DNA of 64,000 nucleotides, taken from NCBI RefSeq assembly GCF_041690455.1, contig NZ_JAWLHI010000007.1:1610-65609 (forward strand), read 5' to 3'. Every line of letters begins with the position of its first letter. Position 1 is the first letter of the stretch. The DNA comes from Marinobacter sp. (GTDB taxonomy: Bacteria; Pseudomonadota; Gammaproteobacteria; Pseudomonadales; Oleiphilaceae). The notes under the pieces were generated by a model. That model was given only the letters and a program-made list of their open reading frames with translations, was not told where the DNA came from and searched no databases. Position numbers and translations under genes: made by a program. Below are positions 5,158 to 44,149 of this stretch, piece after piece.

Positions 5158-7254
<2,097 letters not shown>

Positions 7255-7439: not shown

Positions 7440-10208
7440 ATGTGCGCCGATAGTTGTTCCCGCATCGCTTCCGGTCTCCGCTTTACCGGCCTGATACTTC
7501 TCCTGACTGCTCTCGTTGGCTGTAAAACCGAGAAAGACCCGGATCAGCCAACCATCCTCGGGGCACCGCCGACCAACGCCTACCTGGGCGTGGAGTATTA
7601 CTACAACTGGGGCGCGTACGGGGGGGAAGGCATTCTCGATTACAGCCTGACCAACGCTCCGTCCTGGCTGGCGCTGGAGGACATCAGCAACAAGGCTCGC
7701 CAGGGTGTGATCATGTACGGCGTGCCCGGCCTGACCGGGGGCAGTCGGGGTGAGGCGGATCTCGGGAAGACCGAAGACATCAACCTGGTGACCACAGATG
7801 GCAGCCTGGCCGGTACTGCGCCGTTTGATATTGAAGTGCGATACAACCCCCTGGCTCTGGAGGCGGGTAACTTCACCGAGGGTGAGGTACCGGAACTTGC
7901 GACTCCGAGAGGGGAGCATTGCGCGGTGCCGGATCTGTCCGAGCCGGGAGAACATACCTTCACCATCAATACCTACGACGATTCCGGCGCGGTTGATGGC
8001 GAAAAGGAAGTCACCCTGCCTACCCGTCAGGTCGCCGTCAAGGTGACCCTCGACAAGCCCTCGGTGACCCGGGTTGGCGTCGCCTTTGAACTGAGCTCCC
8101 AATACGATCCCGGCATGTGTGATCCGTCGTTCACCGGCACCGCGCCTCACCAGCGTTGCGATTTCAGTGCTGCCAATGCCAGCGACGCCATCATCGGTAA
8201 GGACATTGTAGGCCTCGGCACCGGCTCTCCGGCGCCCGTGGATGAAAACGGCGATCCGCTCGGCTACCTCTCCTACGAAGCGGATGACAATGGCTATCTG
8301 ACCCGGGGAGTCGTCACCCTTGAGCCGGGAATCACCGAATGCTATATCCGCCTCGAAGTGGTGGAGGACAGTTTTGCCGAGCTTTCCGAGTCGGCACATC
8401 TGACCCTCACCGAGGTCCGCTCCGGCCTTGCCGGGCTTGGCCCTAACAACGGCGGGGTACAGGCCACCGTGACCATTGATGACAACGAACCGGTGGTGTC
8501 CCTGGAAACCCTGAACGGCGGGCTCAGGGACACCCTGAACGTGGGGGATGCCCGGGAATACCGTGCCAGGTTGACCGGCGAGCGGGAAGGAATCGTGCAG
8601 GCCCGCCTGATCCACTCCGAAAGTTCCACCGCGCGACTTGATAGCGAGTTTGTGATCGAGCAGCAGGAAGCCGGGCTCTGGGTGGAGAATCCAACCCTGA
8701 GTTTTCCGGCGGATCAGGATCAGGTCACCCTCCGTGTCCGTGTGCCTGCGGACAGCTACACCAACCCGGGTCTGGACGACCGTTTTATCCAGATGGCTCT
8801 GGACGAGGCCTACCAGGCCGGACGCGAGGGATTTGCACGGCCGGCGTCAGAGGATCTGCTGCGTATCAGCCTGAATGAACTGACAGCACCGATCGTTCTG
8901 CCGGCGGGCGGAGGTTTCCTGCCCACGGATATGGCCCTTGGTCACGACGGCCGGCTTTTCCTGGCCGGCTATGACAGTGCCGACGGCAACCGGGCCAAGG
9001 TCCGGATCTTTGACCAGAAAGGCAACCTGCTACAGGAGGCAGGCGTTACGCCGGAGGGTGTCAGTCTTGCGCCGTCGTCCCCGGTCATTGGTGTGGTGAA
9101 CAGGAAGGTTACCGAGAACAACACCAAGGTGGACCGGTATGAGTTCGTGGTTGCCTACAGCACTGACGAGAACATTCCGGGGGCAAATCGCGCGGAAGTA
9201 GATATGGGCCTTGAGGACGTCATTGCCTCCGTATTCTTGTTCAACGGTGATTTGAACGGTGGCGAGTACGTTCCTTACTGGACGCTACGCAGTGGCACCT
9301 CTGGTAACGACCGGACCCGGGATGCCGGGATCAATCCGGATTCCGGCTATGTGATCCTGTCCGGTGAAACCACCGGAACCTGGCCCGGACAAAGTTCGGC
9401 CGGTGGCGTAGACAGCTTCCTGCAACGGATTGATACTGTGCTGGACGGCGACACGCCGGTGCCCGAAGTCGCCTGGACCCGACAGGTGGGATCTGCCAGC
9501 GACGATGCCGTGGCGGGCAGTTCGGTGCTGTCCATGTCGCCCATGCTGTTCGGCTCGGCTGCAGGTTCCGTGGGTGGTGCCCAGGTGATCGGCGGGGAGG
9601 ATGCCTATTTCTATTCCTACGGCGGGGCGTCAACCACGCCGACCGTCTATCAGGTGGGAACTGCTGGTGATGAGTCGGTCACGGCCGGCCTGTTCAGTGG
9701 GAATCACCTCTGGCTGCTGGGCGCGAGTGATGGGGAGTACTCCGTCGCCACCGGCGAGGACGATGTTCAAACCCTGGTGCGTGAGCCGTTGTCCAGTCAG
9801 GCGGGCTTCCTGCTGTCCTATTCCCCGACCGGAGGCCTGAGCAGGGGGTTCACCTTGAACGACGCGGCGGACGCATCCAGTGAGTCTTTCCACGCCCTGA
9901 CCGGATTCGGTGGCGATATGGTGGCCGGAGGCGATACCACCGGCAATTTCACCGGAGATGCGGTTCCTTCATCCGGCCAGACCCAGGGCATCGTCAGCCG
10001 CATTTCGCTGGTCGAGCCGACCGCAACGGATGACAGCGAACCAAAGTTCCGCAACGAGTGGCGCTTCCAACTGACGACCGGAGAGACGTCTGTACAGCGA
10101 CTCGCCAATTACCGGGACGACGAAATCACGGCGTTGGTGCGTTCGGGGGACGACCGGATGATTACCCTGCTCAGTCCCGAGGGGCGGCTGCTGACGCCCC
10201 TGAACTGA
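7440..10208 (+). CDS. Large predicted lipoprotein with Ig-like, Calx-beta-like and beta-propeller-like repeats
   Basis: 922 aa ORF; lipobox LLTALVGC; Ig-like segment (PTILGAPPT..AYLGVEYYY..LTNAPSWL); C-terminal SBBP-like repeats (GGVDSFLQRID, WTRQVGSASDD, GGEDAYFY, QVGTAGDE). Start codon uncertain. Confidence 0.65.
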   Translation: MCADSCSRIASGLRFTGLILLLTALVGCKTEKDPDQPTILGAPPTNAYLGVEYYYNWGAYGGEGILDYSLTNAPSWLALEDISNKARQGVIMYGVPGLTGGSRGEADLGKTEDINLVTTDGSLAGTAPFDIEVRYNPLALEAGNFTEGEVPELATPRGEHCAVPDLSEPGEHTFTINTYDDSGAVDGEKEVTLPTRQVAVKVTLDKPSVTRVGVAFELSSQYDPGMCDPSFTGTAPHQRCDFSAANASDAIIGKDIVGLGTGSPAPVDENGDPLGYLSYEADDNGYLTRGVVTLEPGITECYIRLEVVEDSFAELSESAHLTLTEVRSGLAGLGPNNGGVQATVTIDDNEPVVSLETLNGGLRDTLNVGDAREYRARLTGEREGIVQARLIHSESSTARLDSEFVIEQQEAGLWVENPTLSFPADQDQVTLRVRVPADSYTNPGLDDRFIQMALDEAYQAGREGFARPASEDLLRISLNELTAPIVLPAGGGFLPTDMALGHDGRLFLAGYDSADGNRAKVRIFDQKGNLLQEAGVTPEGVSLAPSSPVIGVVNRKVTENNTKVDRYEFVVAYSTDENIPGANRAEVDMGLEDVIASVFLFNGDLNGGEYVPYWTLRSGTSGNDRTRDAGINPDSGYVILSGETTGTWPGQSSAGGVDSFLQRIDTVLDGDTPVPEVAWTRQVGSASDDAVAGSSVLSMSPMLFGSAAGSVGGAQVIGGEDAYFYSYGGASTTPTVYQVGTAGDESVTAGLFSGNHLWLLGASDGEYSVATGEDDVQTLVREPLSSQAGFLLSYSPTGGLSRGFTLNDAADASSESFHALTGFGGDMVAGGDTTGNFTGDAVPSSGQTQGIVSRISLVEPTATDDSEPKFRNEWRFQLTTGETSVQRLANYRDDEITALVRSGDDRMITLLSPEGRLLTPLN

Positions 10209-10212
10209 GGTG

Positions 10213-12090
10213 TCAGCCGGCCCGGCGCCGGCATATCCGGTCCGGCCGGACGCTGTGGGCGAGTGTCGCGGGCAGGCAGGCCGGTTGCCCGGTGAGCTGG
10301 TCCGCCACGTACTCGGCAAGAAGCGGCGCGTAGGTGAGCCCCTTGCTCCCCAGGCCGCTAAGCAGATAGACACCTTCAAGTGACTGCCCGTTGCAGTCTG
10401 CCATCATTCCGGCTACCGGCTGGTAATCGTGGGTGGTGCAGCGGAAGCCGACGCGTCCCTCGAAATCCCCGTTGCTTTCGTCTTCAGCAAACAAGCCCGG
10501 CAACATGTCGCCGAGCTGCTGGAGGTTCTCGGCGTTGGCCTCGCGGGTGACCGTGGGGTCGGCGCTGTGAAGGTCAAAGGTGGCCCCGGTCACGGCCAAG
10601 CCGTCCTGGCACGGATTAAGGTATTTCTGGCCACAGATAACCGCCTTGGGTGCCCGGATGGCTTCCTCGGGGAGGTGGGTTACCTGGCCCCGGATCGCCT
10701 TGAACCGATATTCACCCTTGAGCGGAATCAGTTCCGCCGTTTGGTGGCCTGCGGCGATCACCACACTCTCTGCGATGATGTCGGCGCCATTAAGGCTGGA
10801 CAGGTGCCATTTGCCGTTGCAGGGCATCAGCCGTTCCACCCGTGTGCCGAATCGGCAATCAATCAGGGCGTGACGGGCCAGCTCCCGGCAAAGGCTGCCG
10901 GGTGACAGCCAGCCATTATTGGGGAACCAGAGCCCACCGTTGGCGACGGAAGTACCGGTAAGTTCGGAGGCGGTGGCCGCGTCCACAGGGTACAGAAGCT
11001 CTTCGGGATACTGGTTGCGCTCCAGGAAACGAGCCTGCCGGTCCTGTTCCTGAGGATTCCACGCCATCTGTAGCAGGCCGGTCGTGTGCCAGAAGGAATC
11101 CCGGTAGGGTTCGTAGGCGCGCTGACTGAAGGTCAGGGCGGAGACGGCCAGTTCTGTCTGGGCGTTGAACTCGACGCCGAGCTTCACATACATTGCGCCC
11201 TGAAGATTTCCGGAGGCCGCGGCACCGGCAGTTTCTTCCGCATCAATGAGAGTGACCGCCACACCGCGACTGGCCAGATTCCGGGCCAGCAGGGTGCCAG
11301 CGATGCCCGCACCGATGATTGCCACGGTACCGGCAGGGGCAGGCGAATTGCTGGAAACGGTGCCAGGCAGCACCCCGGCGATCATGTCCCGCTTGCGTCC
11401 GTAGCCCGGTGTTTTGCGCATCTCGAAGCCTTCGTCCTCGAGCGCCCGGCGGATTCTGCCCACCGCGGTAAAGGTCGCCAGGGTCGTGCCCGGTTTACTG
11501 TGCTCGCGGATTAGCGCCATGGCCTGGTCCAGCCACATGTCGGGGTTCAGGGCCGGAGCAAAACCGTCCAGGAACCAGGCGTCGGCAGAGAATGACAGAG
11601 CCCCCCAGGCTTCCAGTACATCGCCAAAGTGCAGGGTCAGGCGCACCCGGCCTTCATCCAGTACCAGGCGGTGGGTACCCCGGACCAGGGACGGGTAACG
11701 CGCCAACAGTTCCGCAGCGAGCGGTGCCAGTTCGGGCCAGAGGTCCAGGGCGCGCTTGAGATCATCCCGTGTGAGTGGGTAGCGCTCGGCGGAGACGAAA
11801 TGCAGTACGGATCCGTTATCCGGCCGGTGCTCTTGCCAGGCTTGCCAGGCGGCAAGAAAATTGAGGCCGGTGCCGAAGCCGGTCTCCGCGATCACGAACG
11901 CACCTTGCGGAGGCACTACCTGGAAACGGTCGATCAGGTTGTTGTGGTCCAGAAAGACATAGCGGGTTTCTTCCAGGCCGTTATCGCGGCTGAAGTAGAC
12001 GTCCCCGAACCGGGCCGACTCCGGTATTCCATCCCGCCAGACGAGATCGGCGGGTTCGATTGCTGGCGGACGTACGGTGGATTCAGTCAT
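10213..12090 (-). CDS. mnmC: Bifunctional tRNA mnm5s2U34 biosynthesis protein MnmC
   Basis: N-terminal methyltransferase (FGDVYFS, ETGFGTGLNF, DAWFLDGFAP, GYGRKRDM) plus FAD oxidase domain (IIGAGIAG, ASGN, GLGSKG). Confidence 0.95.
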   Translation of the reverse strand: MTESTVRPPAIEPADLVWRDGIPESARFGDVYFSRDNGLEETRYVFLDHNNLIDRFQVVPPQGAFVIAETGFGTGLNFLAAWQAWQEHRPDNGSVLHFVSAERYPLTRDDLKRALDLWPELAPLAAELLARYPSLVRGTHRLVLDEGRVRLTLHFGDVLEAWGALSFSADAWFLDGFAPALNPDMWLDQAMALIREHSKPGTTLATFTAVGRIRRALEDEGFEMRKTPGYGRKRDMIAGVLPGTVSSNSPAPAGTVAIIGAGIAGTLLARNLASRGVAVTLIDAEETAGAAASGNLQGAMYVKLGVEFNAQTELAVSALTFSQRAYEPYRDSFWHTTGLLQMAWNPQEQDRQARFLERNQYPEELLYPVDAATASELTGTSVANGGLWFPNNGWLSPGSLCRELARHALIDCRFGTRVERLMPCNGKWHLSSLNGADIIAESVVIAAGHQTAELIPLKGEYRFKAIRGQVTHLPEEAIRAPKAVICGQKYLNPCQDGLAVTGATFDLHSADPTVTREANAENLQQLGDMLPGLFAEDESNGDFEGRVGFRCTTHDYQPVAGMMADCNGQSLEGVYLLSGLGSKGLTYAPLLAEYVADQLTGQPACLPATLAHSVRPDRICRRRAG

Positions 12091-12866: not shown

Positions 12867-13691
12867 ATGGAAACGATAAAGACAAGCGACTATCAGGCAT
12901 TGCAGGCCTATCTTCGGGATGCCTGCGGGATCCTGCTGAGGGACAGCGCTCAGGAGCTGGCCCGGCGACGCCTGCGGCCGGTACTGGATAATCATCAGTT
13001 GATCTCCATCGAGGATCTACTGGAAGGTCTGGACAGACCGGGGCGGTCCGGCCTGAAGGAAGCTGTCATTGATGCGATCACCATGAGCGAAAGCCGGTGG
13101 TTCGGCGACGCGTCGGTGTTTTCAATGCTGTGCGACCAGGTGTTACCCGACATCGCCGGGCGTACCCCGGGCAAGAGGGTGGCGATCTGGTCAGCGGCCT
13201 GTTCCACCGGCCAGGAGTCATACTCCCTGGCCATGGCCGCAAGCGAGTTCAAGGAGCGGAACCCCGGCAACCTGGCCGAGGCCAGGGTTTTGTCGACGGA
13301 TACCTCCCGTAGCGCCCTGGAGGTGGCCCGGCGGGCTCACTACGAACTCGGTCCTGAAGACACGGAAATTACTTCCCGGCGCAAGGAGCGTTTTTTCCAG
13401 TCCATCGAGAAGGGTGGCTGGCAAGTCAGCCCCGATATCCGTTCCCTGGTCGAGTTCCGTGAGCTGAACCTGCTTCAACGCACTTTGCCGGGCAAGTTCG
13501 ACGTGGTGATCTGCCAGAACGCCCTGGTTTACTACTCGGCAGAGAAGAGAAAGGCCATATTGGCCCGGTTTCATGCTTCCCTCAATCCCGGCGGCTACCT
13601 GATCGCCGGGTCCTCCGAGCTGGCGGGCGACATGCCCAGCCTGTACGAACCCATTGAGTGCCCCAGCGGCACCGCCTACAGGAAAAAGTAA
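12867..13691 (+). CDS. cheR: CheR-family SAM-dependent methyltransferase
   Basis: IWSAACSTGQESYSLAM, FRELNLL, FDVVICQNALVY, LNPGGYL. Confidence 0.85.
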   Translation: METIKTSDYQALQAYLRDACGILLRDSAQELARRRLRPVLDNHQLISIEDLLEGLDRPGRSGLKEAVIDAITMSESRWFGDASVFSMLCDQVLPDIAGRTPGKRVAIWSAACSTGQESYSLAMAASEFKERNPGNLAEARVLSTDTSRSALEVARRAHYELGPEDTEITSRRKERFFQSIEKGGWQVSPDIRSLVEFRELNLLQRTLPGKFDVVICQNALVYYSAEKRKAILARFHASLNPGGYLIAGSSELAGDMPSLYEPIECPSGTAYRKK

Positions 13692-13694
13692 TCC

Positions 13695-14900
13695 ATGCCT
13701 CTGAATGTCTGGGTGCTGGTGGCTGCGCAAGCGCTGGCCATGTGTACCGCACCGTTCATCATCGTCATCGGCAGCATCCAGGGCCGGGCCCTGGCACCGT
13801 CTGCTGAGTGGGCCACGCTTCCCGTGGGGCTTGTTGTGGTCGGGACGGTGCTTTCGGTCAAACTGGCCACCTGGTTGATGGAGCGGGTAGGGCGCAAACC
13901 GGTCATGCTGCTGGGGGCCATCATGGGCATCCTGGCCGGCGGTCTGGGTGCGCTGGCTTCCTGGCAGGGATCTTTCCCGCTGCTTTGTGTGGCCGCCGTC
14001 GTGGGTGGTAGTGGCCTTGCGGTGGTGCATCAGTACCGGTTTGCCGCGATGGAGTCGGTGCGTCCGGAGCTTGCAGCCTCGGCCGCAGCCAGGGTGCTTC
14101 TGGGCGGGCTCGGTGCAGCCTGGTTGGGGCCAGAAATTGCCACGCTCGGAGCCGGTCCGGATGAGACTCATCCGTTCATGGATAGCTGGCTTGGGCTGCT
14201 GGCGGTGCAGGCCGTGGCCCTGGTGACACTTTTCGCCGGCTATCGCTCGAAGGGCGAGCTGGTCCGGGAGGACCATGTTGGCGGCGGCCGGCCACTGCGG
14301 GAAATCCTGGTCAATCCCCTGGTACTGGCAGCGATCGGTGCTGCGGCCATCGGTTATGCGGTGATGGCCTTCATCATGACCGCGACCCCGCTCAGCATGA
14401 CCGAAATGGCCGGTCACAGCCTCGACGATGCCAAGACGGTCATCCAGCTCCACATCATGGCCATGTACCTGCCATCCCTGATCAGCGGCTGGCTGACCCG
14501 GGTAGTGGGCATTCCGCTGATGATGGTCGGCGGGCTGCTGGCCTATCTCGCATGCGTGCTGCTTGCGGCAGCCGGCATCAGCTTCCACCACTACCTGTGG
14601 GCGCTCCTGTTGCTGGGCATGGGCTGGAATTTTCTGTTTGTGGGTGGAACTGCCTTGTTGCCACAGGGCTACCAGGATTCCGAGCGTTTCCGGGTGCAGG
14701 GGCTCAATGACATCCTTGTGTTCGGCTCCCAGGCGACCGCGTCGCTGTCTGCGGGAGCGGTTTTTGCCTGGGTCGGGTGGTCCGGTCTGGTTATGGTCTC
14801 CGTACCTTTCCTGGTACTTCAGGGCATTCTCGTGATGCTTTGGCTTGCACGCTCCAGGGCAACCCAGAAGCTGCAGACAGGAGGCGCAGATGCAGATTGA
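13695..14900 (+). CDS. MFS transporter (RfnT-like subfamily)
   Basis: About 12 hydrophobic segments; MFS loop motif LMERVGRK; QYRFAA motif. Confidence 0.85.
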   Translation: MPLNVWVLVAAQALAMCTAPFIIVIGSIQGRALAPSAEWATLPVGLVVVGTVLSVKLATWLMERVGRKPVMLLGAIMGILAGGLGALASWQGSFPLLCVAAVVGGSGLAVVHQYRFAAMESVRPELAASAAARVLLGGLGAAWLGPEIATLGAGPDETHPFMDSWLGLLAVQAVALVTLFAGYRSKGELVREDHVGGGRPLREILVNPLVLAAIGAAAIGYAVMAFIMTATPLSMTEMAGHSLDDAKTVIQLHIMAMYLPSLISGWLTRVVGIPLMMVGGLLAYLACVLLAAAGISFHHYLWALLLLGMGWNFLFVGGTALLPQGYQDSERFRVQGLNDILVFGSQATASLSAGAVFAWVGWSGLVMVSVPFLVLQGILVMLWLARSRATQKLQTGGADAD

Positions 14901-14992
14901 TTTTGATGGCATGGACCCGAAAGAGGTCTATCACATCCTCACCCAGACCATTATTCCCCGACCGGCGTGATTGCCACAGGAGGTCCGAATCC

Positions 14993-17892: not shown

Positions 17893-17983
17893 GGAGAGGT
17901 GGCCGAGTGGCTGAAGGCGCACGCCTGGAAAGTGTGTATACGTTAATAGCGTATCGAGGGTTCGAATCCCTCCCTCTCCGCCA
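17893..17983 (+). tRNA. tRNA-Ser (GGA)
   Basis: GGAGAGG/CCTCTCC acceptor stem, anticodon arm CACGC-CTGGAAA-GTGTG, long variable arm, GGTTCGAATCC T-loop, encoded CCA. Confidence 0.97.
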
Positions 17984-17989
17984 ATACAG

Positions 17990-18014
17990 AACCCCAGCAT
18001 CGCTGGGGTTTTTT
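17990..18014 (+). terminator. Intrinsic terminator after tRNA-Ser
   Basis: AACCCCAGC-atc-GCTGGGGTT followed by a T run. Confidence 0.8.
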
Positions 18015-18159
18015 ATTGGCCGATTGGTAGGGTAAGAAGAACCTTCGCAGGTTCGACCGAAGGCGGCGAAGCAGCCTGAGGAACGTCGGAGCAACGCGAC
18101 GACGGCCCCGAAGGGGTGAGGCCCGCAGGGCCGAATAATCCTCCCTCTCCGCCAATACA

Positions 18160-18190
18160 AAACCCCGTCAGAAATGGCGGGGTTTTTTAT
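18160..18190 (+). terminator. Second intrinsic terminator after the repeat
   Basis: AAACCCCGTCA-gaaa-TGGCGGGGTTT followed by a T run. Confidence 0.8.
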
Positions 18191-18317
18191 TGGGCGTATT
18201 CCAGGTCTAAACTTGATGAGTATCACTTCTTGAGCGGTATCCACCCTTGCGGGTTTGATAGTCGGGAATAACCATATATAAAACAGGTATAACCTACTGA
18301 ACGAAAAGGAGTCGGAT

Positions 18318-18824
18318 ATGTCTCCACGCCCCTTCTGGTCACCCCTCTGGGCAGGCATTGCCCTGGGGTTGGCGTTATTTCTCACCTTTGTCCTGACCGG
18401 TCACGGCTTGGGCGCCAGTGGTTTCTTTACCCGGTTTACCGCGGAAGTTAGTCAGTGGCTGGCACCGGAGCTGACGGCGGCCAACCGGTACCTGGGCGAT
18501 TATGTCCGTGGTGAGCCACTGCAGGCCTGGATCACCTGGGAGGTGATCGGAGCGTTCATTGGTGCACTTGTCGGTGCGCTCTCCGGTCGAAGGTTCAGAC
18601 CACAGGTGGAACGGGGGCCCTCATCCGGAGTCGGTAGCCGGCTCGTGCTGGCTCTGATCGGTGGTATCCTGACCGGTCTCGGTGCCCGTCTGGCACGCGG
18701 CTGCACCAGTGGCCTCGGTCTTTCCGGCGGCGCTGCATTGGCGGTTGGGGGCTTTGTGTTCCTGATCTGCTTCTTCGCGGCGGGTTTCCTGTTCAGCTTC
18801 ATTGTACGGAGGTACTGGCAATGA
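18318..18824 (+). CDS. YeeE/YedE sulfur-transport family membrane protein (first half)
   Basis: W..AGI.LGL, G..LGAS, GARLARGCTSG motif; AAGGAG RBS. Confidence 0.88.
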   Translation: MSPRPFWSPLWAGIALGLALFLTFVLTGHGLGASGFFTRFTAEVSQWLAPELTAANRYLGDYVRGEPLQAWITWEVIGAFIGALVGALSGRRFRPQVERGPSSGVGSRLVLALIGGILTGLGARLARGCTSGLGLSGGAALAVGGFVFLICFFAAGFLFSFIVRRYWQ

Positions 18825-19432
18825 TCTGGCCCCTCTATGATTTCGGTGTTGCGTCCGGTTTGCTGGCCGGCTTCCTGTTCGGCTTTGTACTCGAAAATGC
18901 AGGGTTTGGCAGCCCCCGGAAACTCACCGGGCAGTTCCGGCTTGAAGACTGGTCCGTGTTCAAGGTGATGTTTACCGCGGTTATTGTGGCGGCCGTGCTG
19001 CTGTGGCTGTCGAAACAGTTCGGTTTGATGGGGGCCGGCAGCTACTACGTACCCACGCCGTTCTATGTCGCTATGGCGGTCGGCGGATTGTTGATTGGCG
19101 CAGGATTCGCTATTGGTGGCTATTGCCCGGGAACGTCGGTTGCCGGACTCGCCGGCGGTCGTATTGACGCTATCGTGTTCATGGTCGGAATGCTACTGGG
19201 CACCGCCTTGTTTGCCGCCTGGTTCGGCCCGCTGGAGGACCTCTATCTGGCCACTCCCGGTCCACAGGGGCAGACTCTGATGGATCTTACCGGCATTCCC
19301 GAATGGCTCATTATTCTCGTGCTGGCGGCAATGGCCTGGGGTGGTTTCAAGTTGGGTAGCAGACTCGAGCAAAAGCTGGGCGGGCCCTACCAGGCCTCCG
19401 ATCTTTATCCGGCGGACAACAAACAGAACTGA
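18821..19432 (+). CDS. YeeE/YedE sulfur-transport family membrane protein (second half)
   Basis: GFLFGFVLE..GF, D.SVFKVM, GFAIGGYCPGT motif; ATGA overlap with the upstream gene. Confidence 0.88.
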   Translation: MIWPLYDFGVASGLLAGFLFGFVLENAGFGSPRKLTGQFRLEDWSVFKVMFTAVIVAAVLLWLSKQFGLMGAGSYYVPTPFYVAMAVGGLLIGAGFAIGGYCPGTSVAGLAGGRIDAIVFMVGMLLGTALFAAWFGPLEDLYLATPGPQGQTLMDLTGIPEWLIILVLAAMAWGGFKLGSRLEQKLGGPYQASDLYPADNKQN

Positions 19433-19444
19433 AGGAGCACAGTC

Positions 19445-20257
19445 ATGACCAGTTACCGTTTCAAACGTGCCGCATTACCTGTAGCCATTACCATCGCCTT
19501 GGGCATGGGTGTTGCCGGGTGCTCCGATTCGCAGAACCCGGCCGCAACACAGGGTCAGACAAGCAGTCAGTCGTCGAGTGCCAATCCCTGTGCGGCCGCG
19601 AATCCGTGCGCGGCAGCCAGCCAGAGTGGGGCGAACCCCTGCGCGGCGGCCAACCCCTGCGCCGCAGCCAATCCATCAGCAAACCCCTGTGCGGCAAACT
19701 CCGGCTCGGGTAGTGGCACAGCCCAGCCAATGCCCGCAGCCGTTCCCAGATCGACCGCGCAAAATCCTGACCGGGCGCTTCCTTACGCAATTGAAAGTGA
19801 CCGGACAGAGGCGCCTTTCGGCAGTGAAATGCCTTCCGTGGTCAAAAACTACAACAGGCCATCGCCGTTTATTGCCGCTGGCGGCCATGTGGAGAAAGGC
19901 GCAATGGCAGAACTGAAGGCCCAGGGCTTCAATACCGTGGTCAGTCTGCTCACCGAAGAGGAAGGTGTGGCGGAGGAAAAGGCGGAGGCACATGCCGCCG
20001 GCCTGAATTTCTATGGGCTTGGCGTTTCAACCAGCGCGCCAACCCGGGCTCAGGTGGAGGCATTCTCGAAGATCGCATCTTCGCCGGCGAACTATCCGAT
20101 TCTGGTGCACTGTGCCAGCAGTAACCGGGTAGGGGCGATGTGGGCCCTGTACCGGTTCCAGATGGGTGTGCCTGCGGAGATTGCCATTGAGGAAGGGCGG
20201 GCTGCCGGTCTGAAAACGAGCCGGGAAGGTGCTGTTCGGGAACTCATGGGCCTCTGA
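19445..20257 (+). CDS. Lipoprotein: ANPCAA-repeat linker plus DUF442/PTP-fold Cys sulfurtransferase domain
   Basis: Lipobox GVAGC (Cys26); five ANPCAA repeats; C-terminal GF.TVVSL..EEE..VHCASSNRVGAMW matches the DUF442/Blh-type HCxxxxR loop. Confidence 0.8.
   Translation: MTSYRFKRAALPVAITIALGMGVAGCSDSQNPAATQGQTSSQSSSANPCAAANPCAAASQSGANPCAAANPCAAANPSANPCAANSGSGSGTAQPMPAAVPRSTAQNPDRALPYAIESDRTEAPFGSEMPSVVKNYNRPSPFIAAGGHVEKGAMAELKAQGFNTVVSLLTEEEGVAEEKAEAHAAGLNFYGLGVSTSAPTRAQVEAFSKIASSPANYPILVHCASSNRVGAMWALYRFQMGVPAEIAIEEGRAAGLKTSREGAVRELMGL
19580..19696 (+). repeat. Intragenic 18-nt (ANPCAA) repeats, five copies plus a degenerate ANPS
   Basis: gccaatccctgtgcggcc, gcgaatccgtgcgcggca, gcgaacccctgcgcggcg, gccaacccctgcgccgca, gcaaacccctgtgcggca. 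Confidence 0.95.
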
Positions 20258-20925
20258 TGGATTTTCAGCCTGACCTCTCGGCCCTGGCGGACGAAGAGCT
20301 CGAAAGCCTCCTGGATTCGGCCAGCCGGGTCCGGGAGTGCTATCGCGTGCTTGAGAAAGGCGGCCTGAATGTTGTGGGTGAGGTTTTGAAGGGCCAGGGC
20401 ACCTTCTACGAGATGGAGCATTACCCCAAGGGTGATGTCTTCGACCGGGACACCCGCAGCCAGTACTATTACCACGCCCACCGGCAGGACAACCCCGAAC
20501 ACGGCCATTTCCATACGTTCCTGAGGCTGCCGGACGGGGAGAAGGGCGAAGATCGCACCATGCACCTGATTGCCATCTCCATGGATGCCTGGGGCTTCCC
20601 GACCGGACTGTTTACCACCAATCGCTGGGTGACCGACGAGAAGTGGCATCCCTCCGACCAGATCATCCCCCGTCTTGGCGAGTTTGAAATCGACCATGCG
20701 TCACCAAGCTGGCCGGTAAACATCTGGATAACCCACTTTGTCCGGCTCTACCGGTTTCATATTGCAGCCATGCTGGAAGAACGTGATCGGGTCATCCAGT
20801 CCGTCGGGCGGCCGCTTGATGAGGTCCTGGAGAACCGGGACTTTGAGGTCCTCAGCAGCTGCGAGGTTGATGTTGAAGCGTGGCAGAAAACCCTGAACCA
20901 GGCCTTGCGACAACAGCATCGCTGA
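20257..20925 (+). CDS. Hypothetical protein with YYYHAH and HGHFHTF motifs (DUF6969-like)
   Basis: 222 aa; TGATG coupling to the upstream gene; His-rich motifs. Family name is from memory. Confidence 0.7.
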   Translation: MDFQPDLSALADEELESLLDSASRVRECYRVLEKGGLNVVGEVLKGQGTFYEMEHYPKGDVFDRDTRSQYYYHAHRQDNPEHGHFHTFLRLPDGEKGEDRTMHLIAISMDAWGFPTGLFTTNRWVTDEKWHPSDQIIPRLGEFEIDHASPSWPVNIWITHFVRLYRFHIAAMLEERDRVIQSVGRPLDEVLENRDFEVLSSCEVDVEAWQKTLNQALRQQHR

Positions 20926-20929
20926 AATG

Positions 20930-21208
20930 TCAGTAGCGTACCCCGAAATTCGAGAACTCCCCATTCGCCCGCTGCTCCTCAACCTCGATATCAGTGACCT
21001 TGGCCGCAGGGGGACCTTCCTGGCACCACTGGTGCAATTGCTGGAGCTCTTCCGGACTGCCTTCGGCAATCACCTCGACGCGTCCGTCCGGCAGGTTCCT
21101 GGCATAGCCGAACAGCCCCAGCCGATTGGCTTCCTTTTCGGTGGAGGCCCGGTAGTAGACACCCTGCACCTTGCCTGAGATCAGCATTTTCCAGCGTTTC
21201 TTGTCCAT
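20930..21208 (-). CDS. acyP: Acylphosphatase
   Basis: GKVQGVYYR, G.ARNL.DGRVEV, GPPAA.V. Confidence 0.92.
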   Translation of the reverse strand: MDKKRWKMLISGKVQGVYYRASTEKEANRLGLFGYARNLPDGRVEVIAEGSPEELQQLHQWCQEGPPAAKVTDIEVEEQRANGEFSNFGVRY

Positions 21209-21290
21209 AGCAGTCGCGCGACTCCGTTACATGTTAGCCTGAGACCAATCTAACGCCCCGGCCGGAAACGATTCAAGGAAGGGTAAAGCC

Positions 21291-22058
21291 ATGTTCACCA
21301 AACATAATAACACCGGATTTTCCGATGCACTGATTTGCGAGGCGGAGGGGCTGGAGAGCCTTCGTTCAGCACTGGTGCAGGCGGGTGTCACGGATGTGCG
21401 GATTCCGGAGGTGGTGCGGGTCGATAATAGTGTGCTGGAGATCACCGGCATCGAGTCCGAACCCGCCACTGCCGAAACCCTTGCCATGCTGGGAGAGGGG
21501 CTGGCGCTGATGCACCGGCTGAAACAGGATCGCTACGGCTGGGGACGGGACAACTACATCGGACTGTCGCCCCAGCCCAATGGCTGGTCGGACTCCTGGG
21601 GGGAGTTCTTCGTTTCAGACCGCCTGGGCTATCAGGTGAGTCGAATCCAAAATCCGGAGATTCGTGTTGAGTTCGAGGCGGTACTCGAGCGCCACGGCGA
21701 GTCTCTGGCACGGTGGCTCGACGATACCTGCGAGCATCCGAGCCTTTTGCACGGCGACCTCTGGAGCGGCAACGCTCTGTTTGATCGGAACACCCCCTGG
21801 CTTATTGATCCGGCAGTATATTGCGGTGACCGGGAGGCAGATCTGGCAATGACCGAAATGTTCGGCGGCTTCGGCGAGGCGTTCTACGAGGCCTACGACC
21901 GGATGTACGCCCGATCCCCGGATTATCCCCGCAAGAGGGACATCTACAACCTGTACCACTATCTGAACCACTACAACCTGTTTGGCGGCGGTTACCTCGG
22001 TGGTTGTCAGCGCGGTTTCGAGACGGTTCGTGCGGTCGGCTCTCAGATGATGCCGTAA
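21291..22058 (+). CDS. Fructosamine kinase family protein
   Basis: LLHGDLWSGN, IDPA.YCGDREADLAMT.MFGGF, YNLYHYLNH. Confidence 0.9.
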   Translation: MFTKHNNTGFSDALICEAEGLESLRSALVQAGVTDVRIPEVVRVDNSVLEITGIESEPATAETLAMLGEGLALMHRLKQDRYGWGRDNYIGLSPQPNGWSDSWGEFFVSDRLGYQVSRIQNPEIRVEFEAVLERHGESLARWLDDTCEHPSLLHGDLWSGNALFDRNTPWLIDPAVYCGDREADLAMTEMFGGFGEAFYEAYDRMYARSPDYPRKRDIYNLYHYLNHYNLFGGGYLGGCQRGFETVRAVGSQMMP

Positions 22059-23077: not shown

Positions 23078-25135
23078 ATGCCCGGACCCAACGGTTTTCA
23101 GCGGAGTTCTCTCAGGATCCAGCCCTGCGGCTGCCTGTTGGTATTGAGCAGAACGCTGGACCGTATAGTCCAGTGCAGCGCCAATGCGGAGTACTTCCTG
23201 CAGGTACCGGCCGAAACCCTGCTTGACCAGTCCCCGGAGGGAGTTTTCGGCGCCCGGGTGCTGGCCCGCATTCGCCGAGAACTGGCAGAGGACGATGTGC
23301 TCAGCGGGCCGGTTTCCATTCGTAAGGAGAACAAAGGCCGCCAGATCCGCCTCCAGGTGAATGCTTTTCGTTCCGGAGCCTGGGTGGTGGTCGAAATCGA
23401 ACCCATAACGGGCCTTGGAACAAGACGGATGACCGGAAGGGTCAACCGCTGGCTTGGCAAGCTGGCCAATGCCCGTAATCCCGACGATCTGATGGATATC
23501 CTGGTGGACGGCGTTCGTGACCTGGTCCGGTTTGACCGGGTGGTGGTGGCGCACTTTGACGAACAGGGCCATGGCGTCTTTCTGGCCGAGAGCAAGCGCA
23601 AGGGCGTTTCACCCTTGCGGGGTCAGCGTTTTTCCGCATCCGCGTATCCTCCGGCGCAACGTTCAAAAATGACCCGGCACCAGGTGCGGAGTATTCCGGA
23701 CCTCGAGGCCGGCCTGGTGCCGGTGCTGGTTTCCGGCAAGATGAACCGTGAACAACTGGCGGACGTCGATGCCAGCGGGACGGTACTCCGGGCACCGTCC
23801 CGGAGGCAGACCGCGTACCTGAATTATTTCAGGGCCCAGGCGCTGCTCTCTATCGCGATTGTCGGTCCCTCGGGCCTCTGGGGCCTGGTTACCTGCACGT
23901 CGGAAAAGCCGGTTCCCCTTGCGCCGACCCTGAGGGACGCGGCACGCACCCTGGTTCTGATGGCCACCCAGCGCCTGTTCCTGCTGAAATCCCGGATGGA
24001 GGCCCAGTTCTTACAGCGCGTTCACAAGTCCAGGGATTTTCTGGCAGCTGATATCACAGTCGGGCTTTCTCCGGCCAGGATGCTTGAGAAATACGCCCCC
24101 GACTGGCTGGCATTGTTCCGCGCCAGTGGCATGGCCTATGCCAACAGCGGTGATATTGCCGCGCTCGGAGAGGTCCCTCCCACTGCTTCGCTCGAACAAC
24201 TGGTCGCCAGGCTGAACGCCGAACAACAGGGTCGATCTCCCTGGGTGTCGGCCAGGCTGAAAGAGGAGCCGCTGGCCAGGGGGCTGGAACTCGGTGCTGC
24301 CTGTGGCCTGCTGGCGGTTCCGCTACCGGGGGAGCGGGTCACCAGCTGGTTTATGGTCTTCCGGGGAGAACACGGTCGAGGCATATATTGGGAGGGCCGT
24401 CCGGAGGTGGATATTCTGACCAGCGCACCGGGGGAGGAGGAAACCTTCCGCAAGGCCTTCGGTTCCTGGCTGGAAGCCGTGGAAAGCAGCAGCGAACCCT
24501 GGAAACGTGTGGAGCGTCTCGCCGCGGTGGATCTGGCAGAGGACATGGCGCTGCTGGCATCAATCAGCGAAATTACCCGGCTGAACGAGTTGCTCAAGGC
24601 CGAGCAGGCTGCGTTGGCGCAGGCCAACGAGCAACTCAGTCATGCTGCGAGCCATGACTCCCTGACCGGTCTCTGGAACCGTTACCGGACCGAATATGAA
24701 CTGGACCGGGAGCTGGCGAAAGCAAGGCGCCATGGCTTGCCGTTTTCAGTGCTGCTGCTGGATGTCGATCATTTCAAAAACATCAATGACTCCTGGGGCC
24801 ACGCGGCCGGTGACGAGGTGCTGCGGGAAGTTGCGCGGAAGGTCACCGATGTGCTGCGCCAGGAGGATCATCTCGGGCGCTGGGGTGGTGAGGAGTTTGT
24901 CATTCTGGCGACAGGCGCGGGGCGCGCCGATGGGGTGGCCTTGGCCGAACGGGTTCGACAGGCAGTGGCCGAGGTGGCAGTGCCTGGAGTGGAATCCGCC
25001 ATTACTGCCAGTATCGGTGTCGCCAGCTGGCGCCCGGAAGATAAGCGCAAGTCCATTATCCAGCGGGCAGACCGGGCCATGTATGCCGCCAAGAATGGCG
25101 GCCGTAACCGGGTAGAGACCGACGAGGGCCTGTGA
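23078..25135 (+). CDS. Phytochrome-like PAS-GAF-PHY sensor fused to a GGDEF diguanylate cyclase; bilin-binding residues degenerate
   Basis: IQPCG, FDRVVV..FDEQGHG, LWGLVTC and FR.E..W.G.P match phytochrome folds. HDSLTGLWNR, DVDHFK.IND.WGH..GD and RQED..RWGGEEF form an intact GGDEF domain with I-site. Confidence 0.85.
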   Translation: MPGPNGFQRSSLRIQPCGCLLVLSRTLDRIVQCSANAEYFLQVPAETLLDQSPEGVFGARVLARIRRELAEDDVLSGPVSIRKENKGRQIRLQVNAFRSGAWVVVEIEPITGLGTRRMTGRVNRWLGKLANARNPDDLMDILVDGVRDLVRFDRVVVAHFDEQGHGVFLAESKRKGVSPLRGQRFSASAYPPAQRSKMTRHQVRSIPDLEAGLVPVLVSGKMNREQLADVDASGTVLRAPSRRQTAYLNYFRAQALLSIAIVGPSGLWGLVTCTSEKPVPLAPTLRDAARTLVLMATQRLFLLKSRMEAQFLQRVHKSRDFLAADITVGLSPARMLEKYAPDWLALFRASGMAYANSGDIAALGEVPPTASLEQLVARLNAEQQGRSPWVSARLKEEPLARGLELGAACGLLAVPLPGERVTSWFMVFRGEHGRGIYWEGRPEVDILTSAPGEEETFRKAFGSWLEAVESSSEPWKRVERLAAVDLAEDMALLASISEITRLNELLKAEQAALAQANEQLSHAASHDSLTGLWNRYRTEYELDRELAKARRHGLPFSVLLLDVDHFKNINDSWGHAAGDEVLREVARKVTDVLRQEDHLGRWGGEEFVILATGAGRADGVALAERVRQAVAEVAVPGVESAITASIGVASWRPEDKRKSIIQRADRAMYAAKNGGRNRVETDEGL

Positions 25136-42391: not shown

Positions 42392-42409
42392 TATCAGGGA
42401 GTGAGAAAC

Positions 42410-44149
42410 ATGTCGGATCGGTTAACCCGGTTCCTGCCTATTCTGAACTGGCTTAAGGACTATCGGGGCGACACGTTTGTCAGCGACGCGCTGGCAGCAG
42501 TAATTGTCACCCTGATGCTGGTGCCCCAGGCGCTGGCCTATGCCTTGCTGGCAGGTCTTCCGCCCGAGGTTGGTTTGTATGCCAGTATGATCCCGCTGGT
42601 GGCGTACGCACTGTTCGGAACCAGTGCAACGCTTGCTGTCGGGCCTGTGGCCGTTGCCTCCCTGATGACCGCTTCTGCACTCGGTGGCATCGCCGAAGCG
42701 GGCACTCCCGAGTATGTCGGTGCCGCGCTGGTACTGGCCTCGCTCTCCGGCCTGATGCTTTTTGCCATGGGCCTCCTGCGGCTTGGTTTTCTGGCCAATT
42801 TCCTCAGTCATCCGGTGATATCCGGGTTTGTGACTGCTTCGGGCATCCTCATCGCCGGCAGTCAACTTGGCCATATTCTGGGTATCCAGGGCGGCGGCCA
42901 CAACCTGGTGGAAATGGTCCAGGGGCTATGGCAGCAGCTGGGCGGGATCAATCCGATGACTCTGGTAATCGGTGGGGGCGCCCTGGTCTTCCTCTATCTC
43001 TGTCGCAAGTTCCTCAAGCGAGGCCTGACCGGCATTGGATTGTCTGAGCGCCTGGCGGACCTGACCACCAAGGCCGCGCCGGTGACCGCGGTCATCGTCA
43101 CCACGGCGGCCGCCTGGTATTTCGATCTTGGCTCTGCAGGGGTAAACCTGGTGGGTGAAGTGCCCAGTGGCCTTCCGGATATCAGCCTGCCGTCCATGGA
43201 TCCGGATATCTGGGCAACCCTGGTGCCCGCCGCCATCCTGATCAGTCTCGTCGGTTTTGTGGAGTCTGTTTCGGTTGCGCAGACCCTTGCGGCCAAGCGG
43301 CGTCAGCGGATTGATCCTGATTCCGAGCTGATTGCCCTGGGCCTGGCCAACGTGGCCGCAGGCGTTAGCGGTGGTTCGCCGGTATCCGGCGGATTCTCAA
43401 GATCCGTGGTCAACTTCGAGGCCGGTGCCCAGACGCCGATTGCCGGTGCGCTGACCGCTGTCGGTATTGCCGTGGCAACGCTTACGCTGACCGGCCTACT
43501 CGCGTTCCTGCCCAAGGCGACCCTGGCAGCGACCATTATCATCGCTGTGAGCACGCTGATTGACCTGCCGGCGATCCGGCGGACTCTGGCGTATTCGAAG
43601 GCGGACGGAACAGCGATGTTGGCCACGATTATTCTGACCCTGGCGCACGGGGTCGAGGCCGGCATTATTGTGGGTGTTGCGCTGTCGATCGGGCTGTACC
43701 TGTATCGCACCAGCCGACCTCACAGCGCCGTGGTGGGACGGATACCGGGTACAGAACATTTCCGCAACGTTCAGCGCCACAAGGTCGAAATCGACGACAG
43801 TACCGTTGTGCTGCGAGTTGACGAGAGCCTGTATTTCGCTAACGCCCGCTATCTCGAGGAAACGGTTCTGGAGCTGGTGTCCGACAACCCGGAAATGAAG
43901 AATCTGGTGCTGGCCTGCCAGGCGGTCAATGAAATTGATGCTTCTGCCTTGGAAAGCCTGGAAGCGATCAACAGCCGTCTGGAAGATGCGGGTATTCGCT
44001 TGCATCTGTCCGAAGTTAAAGGGCCGGTTATGGATCGCCTGAAACGGACGCATTTCTGTGAGGAGCTGACGGGTCAGATTTTTCTCAGTACGTACGACGC
44101 ATGGAAGGCACTCGCAAAAAAGCCAACTATCCTTTTTAAAACTAACTGA
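42410..44149 (+). CDS. SulP/SLC26 anion transporter with STAS domain
   Basis: PQALAYA.LAGLPPE.GLY, GPVA, HPVISGF, GGFSRS..N, R.DESLYFAN. Confidence 0.93.
   Translation: MSDRLTRFLPILNWLKDYRGDTFVSDALAAVIVTLMLVPQALAYALLAGLPPEVGLYASMIPLVAYALFGTSATLAVGPVAVASLMTASALGGIAEAGTPEYVGAALVLASLSGLMLFAMGLLRLGFLANFLSHPVISGFVTASGILIAGSQLGHILGIQGGGHNLVEMVQGLWQQLGGINPMTLVIGGGALVFLYLCRKFLKRGLTGIGLSERLADLTTKAAPVTAVIVTTAAAWYFDLGSAGVNLVGEVPSGLPDISLPSMDPDIWATLVPAAILISLVGFVESVSVAQTLAAKRRQRIDPDSELIALGLANVAAGVSGGSPVSGGFSRSVVNFEAGAQTPIAGALTAVGIAVATLTLTGLLAFLPKATLAATIIIAVSTLIDLPAIRRTLAYSKADGTAMLATIILTLAHGVEAGIIVGVALSIGLYLYRTSRPHSAVVGRIPGTEHFRNVQRHKVEIDDSTVVLRVDESLYFANARYLEETVLELVSDNPEMKNLVLACQAVNEIDASALESLEAINSRLEDAGIRLHLSEVKGPVMDRLKRTHFCEELTGQIFLSTYDAWKALAKKPTILFKTN

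Follow-up and report, generated by a model that had tools for sequence, protein, structure and literature searches.

Within a 64,000-nucleotide stretch of a Marinobacter sp. genome (contig NZ_JAWLHI010000007.1; the whole stretch is hereafter called the window), a four-gene operon encodes a lipoprotein in which five repeats of Asn-Pro-Cys-Ala-Ala (NPCAA) precede a catalytic domain. The repeat array is genuine, conserved and not a product of chance, and the module extends well beyond this single lipoprotein. As judged by comparison of sequences, the NPCA module sits beside sulfur enzymes, membrane importers of the YeeE/YedE type and proteins of the DUF6969 family, and it probably carries sulfur across the cell envelope. 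The hand-over of periplasmic carrier-bound or insoluble zero-valent sulfur to such importers is an acknowledged gap, for which the NPCA repeat is a concrete candidate. The existence of envelope thiol proteins for the mobilisation of elemental sulfur was postulated long ago, and to our knowledge none has been identified. Being easily recognised, fused to two different catalysts presumed to load sulfur and co-inherited with an importer, the repeat makes this hand-over testable in a four-gene operon of a culturable Marinobacter. Furthermore, the analysis defines a neighbourhood of recurring partners, undescribed in the sources searched, in which NPCA proteins and DUF6969 occur with mono-haem proteins resembling SoxA, a cupredoxin-like family that lacks a Pfam model and FGE-like proteins.

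The NPCA array and its conservation

The initial annotation of this DNA had placed five NPCAA repeats at 19,580-19,696 and had read their differences at synonymous positions (aat/aac, ccc/ccg, tgt/tgc) as a mark of selection on the peptide. The same coordinates were recovered and the differences are real. The units begin at N47, N53, N64, N70 and N80, with cysteines at residues 49, 55, 66, 72 and 82, and a decayed NPS unit begins at residue 76. From the first unit to the fifth, Asn is encoded by AAT, AAT, AAC, AAC and AAC, Pro by CCC, CCG, CCC, CCC and CCC, and Cys by TGT, TGC, TGC, TGC and TGT. Tandem Repeats Finder reports an array at 19,580-19,671 with a period of 18, 5.3 copies and 67% matches. 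Among all six-frame open reading frames (ORFs) of the window, only that of the lipoprotein contains at least two NPC motifs, and no non-orthologous ORF with at least three was found in 908 kb of related loci. These counts exclude a chance origin of the array. A translated DNA repeat was also considered as the source of the array at 19,580-19,696 and was rejected.

Most of the 372 homologues of the lipoprotein carry N-P-C-A-[A/P] units, and 80 orthologous loci from species-representative genomes were examined. The closest genomes are those of Marinobacter, with orthologues at 81-94% identity (94% amino-acid identity in M. pelagius). Between 2 and 9 units are present in 58 of the 80 orthologues and none in the other 22; within Marinobacter alone the copy number varies from 3 to 5. 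Throughout the 239 units of these 58 alpha- and gammaproteobacterial orthologues, N, P, C and A are invariant and every synonymous codon is used, which bears out the proposed selection on the peptide. Position +4 is Pro or Ala, the spacers are variable and the unit-to-unit spacing is 5-21 residues. Cysteine copy numbers are odd in 27 and even in 31 of the 58 orthologues, and this lack of an even-number bias argues against purely structural disulfide pairs.

The presence of the repeats follows the gene context. All evaluable repeat-bearing orthologues (55 of 55, the other three being cut by contig ends) lie directly downstream of a pair of half-size transporter genes, YeeE_A-YeeE_B. None of the 22 repeat-less orthologues does so; seven lie upstream of the pair and 15 elsewhere. 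Additionally, 42 of the 58 repeat-bearing loci have DUF6969 as the next gene, compared with none of the 22 repeat-less ones (Fisher p = 8e-10, with no correction for phylogeny). A neighbour-joining tree of the catalytic domains has one basal repeat-less clade and one repeat-bearing clade, and inside the latter the repeats were lost independently four times (Halomonadaceae, L047, L055 and L072), each loss coinciding with loss of the upstream YeeE pair. The cysteines are therefore not shed at random by homologues, as losses occur only together with loss of the transporter context. By these comparisons, the NPCA repeats are selected as a peptide, can change in copy number and are not freely lost.

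Repeat-less Halomonadaceae orthologues (L017, L019-L023, L026 and L032; 211-214 residues) keep the lipobox, which is mostly followed by a short His-bearing linker such as C-A-H-F-Q-A-D-D-A-D-R-H-Q. In L019 the repeat-less gene is divergent from an ArsR-family (HTH_5) regulator, and another repeat-less orthologue has Redoxin and cytochrome c as neighbours.

The array lies in the N-terminal part of the lipoprotein. The signal comprises K7-R8, a hydrophobic stretch and the lipobox V23-A24-G25-C26, which agrees with the bacterial pattern [LVI][ASTVI][GAS]C, and is followed by a Ser/Gln/Ala-rich stretch that carries the array. These features suggest that the window protein is lipid-anchored at Cys26. 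In E. coli, Ser at position +2 directs a lipoprotein to the outer membrane. By this rule, which may not hold in Marinobacter, the protein would be sorted to the outer membrane and its arm of about 85 residues could span the periplasm. In an AlphaFold2 model built on a 37-sequence alignment, the mean predicted local distance difference test score (pLDDT) is below 55 for residues 1-90, about 69 for residues 91-110 and above 90 from about residue 130, and it stays below 50 across the NPCAA array. The low values over residues 1-90 agree with the disordered linker that had been expected. The accompanying picture of a mere tether between anchor and enzyme does not hold. The lipobox is kept in gammaproteobacterial orthologues, but the alphaproteobacterial ones retain the repeats behind cleavable signal peptides of the 'AQA' type with no lipobox; moreover, other proteins consist of repeats alone or carry arrays on both sides of a domain.

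The predicted split importer and sulfurtransferase

The two genes upstream of the lipoprotein gene match complementary parts of the 310-position Sulf_transp model PF04143: half A matches positions 176-309 at 75.3 bits and half B positions 4-145 at 56.9 bits, the latter with a match to DUF6691 too (Table 1). In all related loci the half B gene is paired with a half A gene. In an alignment of half A with S. thermophila YeeE (6LEO, residues 232-326), the Cys of its 'ARGCTSG' motif falls on the essential Cys293; half B, which gave no PDB alignment, has the Cys motif 'GGYCPGTS', a candidate for the YeeE Cys91 position. PmpA and PmpB correspond to the two halves of YeeE (PMC11582611), and half-size YedE1E2 pairs are reported to import zero-valent sulfur, each half needing its single Cys (PMC10812762). 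Having two neighbouring genes for the C- and N-terminal halves, with the conserved Cys in half A and a candidate for it in half B, the window pair is by sequence of this YedE1E2/PmpAB type, a published type of zero-valent sulfur importer. In published YedE1E2/PmpAB operons the pair is followed by a cytoplasmic sulfur enzyme, persulfide dioxygenase (PDO), whereas in the window it is followed by the exported, predicted sulfurtransferase with its Cys-repeat arm and then by DUF6969.

Half A and half B overlap in ATGA (18,821-18,824), a gap of 12 nt (19,433-19,444) precedes the lipoprotein gene, and the lipoprotein and DUF6969 genes overlap in TGATG (20,255-20,259), where stop and start share one base. 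A convergent acylphosphatase gene lies downstream of the operon. In Marinobacter relatives the four genes are kept together and the flanking genes vary. A promoter and terminator scan of 17,900-21,300 was uninformative. A search of public sequencing runs returned only metagenomes sharing 5-10% of words, and isolate RNA-seq was not found there.

Table 1. Coordinates of the four-gene operon, its protein features and the adjoining tRNA gene in the window
Feature	Position	Strand	Evidence or remark
tRNA-Ser (GGA)	17,893-17,983		directly upstream of the four-gene operon
Half-size YeeE/YedE membrane protein A, 168 aa, C-terminal-half type (PmpA/YedE-like)	18,318-18,824	+	PF04143
Half-size YeeE/YedE membrane protein B, 203 aa, N-terminal-half type (PmpB/YedE-like)	18,821-19,432	+	PF04143, DUF6691
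Lipoprotein gene: signal peptide, NPCA-repeat arm, predicted DUF442-type sulfurtransferase domain	19,445-20,257	+	ORF, 270 aa
Lipoprotein signal peptide with lipobox VAGC	19,445-19,522	+	Cys26 codon 19,520-19,522, Ser at +2; from translation
Array: five NPCAA units and one decayed NPS unit (19,670-19,678)	19,580-19,696	+	
DUF442/PTP-fold sulfurtransferase-like domain, residues ~110-270	19,772-20,254	+	loop HCASSNR, Cys223 codon 20,111-20,113
DUF6969 protein, 222 aa, no signal peptide	20,257-20,925	+	PF22308 at 245.8 bits

The catalytic domain matches PF22741 at 41.7 bits (cut-off 27) and PF04273 at 30.9 bits (cut-off 26.1). It is regarded as a divergent DUF442 subfamily because these Pfam cut-offs are passed but that of TIGR01244 is missed. 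Foldseek places the two solved DUF442 proteins, 3GXH and 2F46, first (probability 1.0, target template-modelling (TM) score 0.72-0.73), above true phosphatases. The CX4R loop HCASSNR pairs gaplessly with YCRTGTR of 2F46 and HCLANYR of 3GXH, whereas a one-residue gap is required against the CX5R phosphatase TpbA (HCKHGNNR). C223, N227 and R228 are invariant in 37 aligned homologues. A periplasmic tyrosine phosphatase resembling TpbA, which was among the fold matches, is disfavoured, since the loop is of the CX4R type and the DUF442 structures match better. Sequence and model together point to an exported, divergent DUF442-type sulfurtransferase whose activity is predicted.

DUF442 domains have measured thiosulfate:cyanide and thiosulfate:glutathione (GSH) sulfurtransferase activity (PMC5823870); they are also persulfidated by polysulfide and swap sulfur with other carrier proteins (PMC11094781). 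The DUF442 domain of Blh, Rhd442 and the SQR-fused DUF442 domain have in common with the window domain a PTP-like fold, a six-residue CX4R loop, membership of PF04273 and a genomic association with YeeE-family transporters. Characterised members are cytoplasmic and have a CRxGxR loop, a published motif (PMC11094781) from which the window loop departs. In contrast, the window subfamily is exported and has the loop C-x-S-[SA]-N-R, the NPCA arm and a TIGR01244 score below cut-off.

NPCA as an exported module

A single-sequence search with the repeat segment returned only short repeat-only proteins at weak E-values, namely 56-83-residue proteins made of a signal peptide or lipobox and NPCA units and nothing else, and a profile search was needed to reveal fusions. 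The exhaustive repeat-profile search yielded 265 cluster representatives with E of 0.001 or less, the majority of which are small NPCA-only proteins and the remainder fusions. Several of the profile matches (P0281, P0343, P0356, P0403 and P0407) are false positives that derive from translated repetitive DNA, for example 'FNPCARVMPCG' units. The commonest fusion partner is a SoxA/TsdA-type cytochrome c domain with arrays on both sides, for which PF21342 scores above cut-off. Besides this haem domain and DUF442, NPCA repeats are more rarely joined to a YHS (seleno)protein domain (NF041384, 146 bits), cytochrome P460, DM13, the membrane family DUF6789 and an unassigned beta-rich domain of about 90 residues. 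The haem-domain profile matches SoxA structures 1H31 (E = 1.4e-9) and 2C1D (4.6e-7) as well as TsdA (8e-3). Its invariant Cys ('MVQxCM') aligns with a SoxA Cys that is Cys114 by residue count, which we take to be the axial ligand of haem 1 in Rhodovulum SoxA. In related loci an NPCA-haem protein is also seen followed by a YeeE-like gene.

Over all proteins the number of NPCA units ranges from 2 to 41, with a typical spacing of 6-10 residues. The largest array seen belongs to a 450-residue protein (L146, 7401-8750) with 41 NPC units, mostly 'ACNPCNPCAAK', and a cytochrome-P460-like C-terminal domain. No model in Pfam (E up to 1) or NCBIfam (E up to 10) covers the repeat. Period-5 arrays alone give a sub-threshold match, at 25.5-27.9 bits against a cut-off of 30, to NF038108, 'Cys-every-fifth RiPP peptide CefA' (RiPP, ribosomally synthesised and post-translationally modified peptide); the window protein does not match this model at E up to 10. 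CefA and NPCA arrays share regular Cys spacing in a small peptide, and the period-5 arrays are 2-5 bits short of the cut-off. However, no tested NPCA protein reaches it, the usual NPCA spacing is wider and the neighbour genes differ. The literature searched contained nothing relevant on an NPCA-type repeat or on DUF6969/PF22308, the NPC motif is absent from the MNIO landscape paper, and exact-sequence cluster look-ups gave no informative names. From sequences and models, the NPCA repeat appears to be a widespread, hitherto undescribed, exported and disordered module that would expose a reactive cysteine every 5-10 residues in the periplasm.

In cyanobacteria, genes for NPCA-only lipoproteins form divergent pairs with a gene for a cupin that bears a 'SPIHNHATWG' motif (L001, 5098-5748, minus strand; L087, 4558-5169, minus strand). 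By motif this cupin resembles thiol dioxygenases; Pfam gives only sub-threshold matches to cupin and CDO_I. A HAMP-HisKA/OmpR two-component pair lies near these genes.

A proposed sulfur-carrier arm

Comparative evidence leads us to favour, tentatively, a reading in which the NPCA array is a multivalent cysteine arm that would take up sulfane sulfur from a loading enzyme and carry it to the importer. Cys223 would draw sulfane sulfur from thiosulfate or polysulfide, as in DUF442 domains. The arm cysteines would then receive it in the form of a persulfide or short polysulfide. Five such carriers in each molecule would increase capacity and reach, and the flexible arm would bring the sulfur to the cysteines in the pore of the YeeE-type heterodimer. 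After import, DUF6969 would handle it in the cytoplasm. Because most related systems pair NPCA arrays with a SoxA/TsdA-like haem domain instead, the carrier would be the constant part and the loader exchangeable, with the DUF442 type loading non-oxidatively and the SoxA type oxidatively. The analysis itself shows the anatomy of protein and operon, the identity of the domains, their conservation and the genomic couplings; we infer every chemical step of this scheme, which way the sulfur is transported and what DUF6969 does. Such a carrier would explain why two unrelated sulfur catalysts occur on the same repeats and why repeats and transporter context are lost together, as well as the multivalency and disorder of the array.

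A persulfide-carrying arm resembling SoxY in concept was among the initial suggestions. It now gains comparative support, as the repeats co-vary with the YeeE/YedE importer and join a second, unrelated loader type, the SoxA/TsdA haem. The combination of repeats, DUF6969 and transporter is also found where the repeats belong to a different protein: an NPCA-only peptide precedes DUF6969 and a full-length Sulf_transp gene in one cluster, NPCA-haem genes stand before a YeeE-like gene, and full-length YeeE is present in 19 of 80 DUF6969 loci. SoxAX is the enzyme that couples thiosulfate to the carrier Cys of SoxY. The transfer of periplasmic carrier-bound sulfur to YeeE-type importers has been described as occurring 'by unknown means', and a route from SoxY through SoxT, a YeeE-like importer, to the cytoplasmic rhodanese Rhd442 has been proposed and is incomplete (PMC11582611). 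By analogy, the carrier scheme matches this published model.

SoxY, within SoxYZ, and the NPCA model both place a periplasmic Cys in a flexible segment marked by a short conserved motif, the carrier role being a proposal in the latter. The sulfur adducts of SoxY are built on its Cys by SoxAX and then passed on; NPCA arrays stand in a similar context, fused to SoxA-like haem and DUF442-like domains and encoded beside YeeE-type genes. However, SoxY is a folded, Ig-like protein paired with SoxZ and has a single Cys in a C-terminal GGCGG, whereas NPCA proteins have 2-41 internal units in a disordered array, no SoxY/SoxZ domain and a carrier joined in one chain with the enzyme presumed to load it. 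In the NPCA system the DUF442-like domain lies in the periplasm, while the DUF442 rhodanese of the SoxY model is cytoplasmic. The NPCA protein is no member of the SoxY family, since it has no SoxY or SoxZ match in Pfam or NCBIfam and its motif is internal to a disordered region.

Several points weigh against a sulfur-carrying role. The periplasm is oxidising and free thiols there require a reductant, and no thiol reductant is encoded in the window operon. The catalytic domain scores 47.9 bits against TIGR01244 'sulfur transferase', under the cut-off of 85.85. The co-variation statistics ignore phylogeny beyond the count of four independent losses. NPCA fusions to cytochrome P460, DM13 and YHS involve domains that are not known sulfur enzymes, and NPCA genes also stand beside copper-related systems, namely YHS proteins and bufferin clusters (4-5 of 80 DUF6969 loci, and loci L004 and L034). 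Furthermore, DUF6969 is tied more closely to NPCA genes (90% of evaluable loci) than to YeeE genes, which were found in 14 of the 39 DUF6969 loci flanked on either side by 2.5 kb or more; this fits an action on the repeats better than one on imported cargo.

DUF6969 and a possible modification of the repeat cysteines

The rival that survives best, which we consider rather unlikely, is that the NPCA cysteines are modified by DUF6969, acting as a cytoplasmic metalloenzyme, before export by the Sec/lipoprotein route. The mature array would then be metallophore-like or redox-active, and the attached domain would be its passenger or partner. As DUF6969 has no signal peptide, it could meet the exported repeats only before export. 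Residues C28, H55, H73, H75, R76, E81, H82, H84, H86, H103, D146 and H147 are invariant in DUF6969, that is, eight invariant His and one invariant Cys besides others. The AlphaFold2 model is confident (pLDDT 89.9, predicted TM score (pTM) 0.90) and has no fold match in the PDB (best E = 0.15, TM about 0.2), nor was there a sequence match. On these grounds a cupin, which had been the first guess, was rejected. The invariant His set and the fold without known relatives both speak for a modifying enzyme, and so does the invariant four-residue N-P-C-A context, which resembles an enzyme recognition motif.

Genomic context also speaks for modification. The DUF6969 family has thousands of members. 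Two genes taken at random, from Oceanisphaera and Novimethylophilus, are each preceded by an NPCA-SoxA-like-NPCA gene, one of them with an NPCA-only gene besides, and the stop/start overlap with the NPC gene seen in the window recurs in Oceanisphaera. Among 80 metagenomic DUF6969 loci, 62 are evaluable in having at least 1.5 kb of upstream sequence, and in 56 of these (90%) an ORF with at least three NPC motifs lies within 3 kb, usually just upstream and on the same strand; the background for such ORFs is zero in about 970 kb. The coupling to the downstream His-motif protein that had been suspected is thus strongly supported at the genomic level. It agrees with the confinement of DUF6969 adjacency to repeat-bearing orthologues. 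The NPC genes of the 56 loci are haem-type plus NPCA-only in 26, haem-type alone in 18, NPCA-only in 10 and DUF442-type in 2. The window operon is thus a minority form of a larger NPCA/DUF6969 system, with a DUF442-like domain in place of the SoxA-like haem and an importer split in two.

Other neighbours recur in the 80 DUF6969 loci: a cupredoxin-like protein without a Pfam model (29), full-length YeeE (19), FGE-sulfatase-family proteins (18), DUF3179 (14), ECF sigma factors (12), glutaredoxin (7), DUF547 (7) and bufferin clusters (4-5). The FGE-sulfatase-family proteins (PF03781) are exported, and in L153 (3922-4947), L142 (4096-4983) and L146 (6364-7230) their genes separate the NPCA genes from DUF6969. 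Oxidation of a peptide Cys is the reaction of those FGE enzymes that have been characterised. By analogy, these neighbours suggest that the repeat cysteines may be enzyme substrates.

There is precedent for changing Sec-signal precursors with repeated Cys motifs before export: MNIO enzymes turn the Cys of Sec-signal bufferins and of EGKCG-repeat oxazolins into thiooxazole or oxazolone-thioamide metal ligands (PMC11626156, PMC12452194). Like these peptides, NPCA proteins are exported precursors with a repeated Cys motif, having a lipobox or Sec signal and 2-41 units. Both groups have Sec-type signal peptides, a variable number of short Cys repeats (up to dozens), occasional fusions to extra domains and a gene directly upstream of a conserved cytoplasmic protein that binds metal or, in DUF6969, may do so. 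Some NPCA genes even lie inside or beside bufferin clusters. In L004, from a soil metagenome, a 76-residue secreted NPCA-only peptide with a His-rich insert (6001-6231) is encoded directly upstream of BufA1-MNIO-HvfC-DoxX and behind an ECF sigma factor. The near-threshold scores of period-5 arrays (25-28 bits) against the CefA model also fit a modified peptide. By analogy, the NPCA repeat would work most like the SoxY arm and looks most like the oxazolin repeats.

Several observations stand against modification. The NPCA motif differs from EGKCG, the bufferin core and DUF2282, and DUF6969 is of an unrelated, unmatched fold, without detectable relation to any enzyme. The known maturase families (MNIO, radical SAM and YcaO) were not found in the window; MNIO (PF05114) and its DUF2063/HvfC partner are absent from the operon and the whole 64 kb, and only a minority of related loci contain them. 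No match to CefA was obtained with the window protein. Moreover, DUF6969 is not nearby for 16 of the 58 repeat-bearing orthologues or for the cyanobacterial NPCA lipoproteins. Modification also leaves unexplained why the repeats track the YeeE pair and why both main fusion partners are sulfur-transfer catalysts.

In its full form, this proposal would make DUF6969 the first of a novel kind of cytoplasmic metalloenzyme that has no counterpart of its fold in the PDB and that modifies the Cys of every exported N-P-C-A unit before export; we give this a low probability, roughly one chance among several. If true, a new Cys-derived group would be displayed in arrays as large as a protein, with as many as 41 in one chain. 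NPCA and DUF6969 would form a RiPP-like system parallel but unrelated to the MNIO/bufferin-oxazolin one, with products working together with SoxA-like haems, DUF442 and YeeE. The Cys-modification chemistry would be new, and DUF6969 would be a categorically new maturase.

Less likely alternatives: metal binding, selenium and a passive spacer

The array could instead be an unmodified thiolate sponge or chaperone that buffers soft metals, for example Cu(I), Hg or Ag, in the periplasm, which we regard as improbable. His-rich inserts in the NPCA-only proteins P0126, P0128 and P0286 are in line with metal binding, as are the His-bearing linkers that replace the repeats in Halomonadaceae orthologues. 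So are neighbourhoods with a bufferin cluster behind an ECF sigma factor, YHS-domain proteins and two-component systems, and the frequent cupredoxin-like protein. However, genes for metal efflux, metal chaperones or metal sensors are absent from the window operon. Those fused or neighbouring families whose activity is known (DUF442, SoxA/TsdA and YeeE) are sulfur-specific, which a sponge explains poorly. Lone, evenly spaced cysteines with no CxxC or CxC pairs would be unusual for a Cu(I) or Hg site, and the cupredoxin-like and CusF-like matches of the neighbouring protein are far under threshold.

That protein, secreted and of about 175 residues, is encoded just downstream of DUF6969 and adjoins NPCA-only peptides in L139 (5808-6338), L087 (5176-5694, minus strand) and L090 (5355-5882). 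Its sequence includes 'TQTGCQF...YIFRVTN.DVPY.LGF.LRG...SCPLNPTPDYPL'. In four loci from metagenomes (L134, L135, L136 and L144) a bufferin cluster is found no more than 5 kb from DUF6969, and in L034 one stands beside a DUF442-type orthologue.

Still less likely is a thiol relay of the same kind with selenium as its cargo, in which selenite would be held on the arm as selenotrisulfide and passed to a YedE-type importer for selenophosphate synthesis. Half A scores 55 bits against the YedE/FdhT selenium model and 45 bits against TsuA, both far under cut-off, and NPCA arrays are fused to the YHS (seleno)protein family. In the P0142 cluster (JGI 3300075153), which lies behind an ECF sigma/anti-sigma pair, an NPCA-only gene comes first and is followed by a 221-aa gene, DUF6969, DUF302 and a full-length Sulf_transp gene. 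It adjoins a Pyr_redox_2/AIRS (SelD-like) fusion, a DinB_2 protein and a VTT/DedA protein, a neighbourhood that hints at a possible selenium link. However, a SelD neighbour occurs at this one locus only, no selenium-utilisation gene was seen in the window, and the documented substrate of DUF442 and SoxA-type domains is sulfur.

Finally, a low-complexity spacer, perhaps stiffened by disulfides, that merely fixes the distance between anchor and enzyme would suit the predicted disorder and the copy number of 3-5 even within Marinobacter, but it is hardly credible given that N-P-C-A is invariant across classes while the spacers are free to vary, that orthologues without a lipid anchor retain the repeats, that repeats are found alone or on both sides of other domains, that there is no even-number Cys bias and that repeat loss is tied to gene context.

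Other features of the window

A SulP/STAS sulfate permease (42,401-44,149, plus strand) and an MnmC-like tRNA modification enzyme (Methyltransf_30 and DAO; 10,213-12,090, minus strand) have no evident tie to the operon. Two long ORFs, of 922 residues (7440-10,208, plus strand) and 564 residues (13,218-14,912, minus strand), are without a Pfam match at E up to 1e-5; the latter overlaps opposite-strand ORFs, and both are putative as genes. A 685-residue ORF at 23,078-25,135 (plus strand), likewise with no evident tie to the operon, has a C-terminal part that looks diguanylate cyclase-like by eye.

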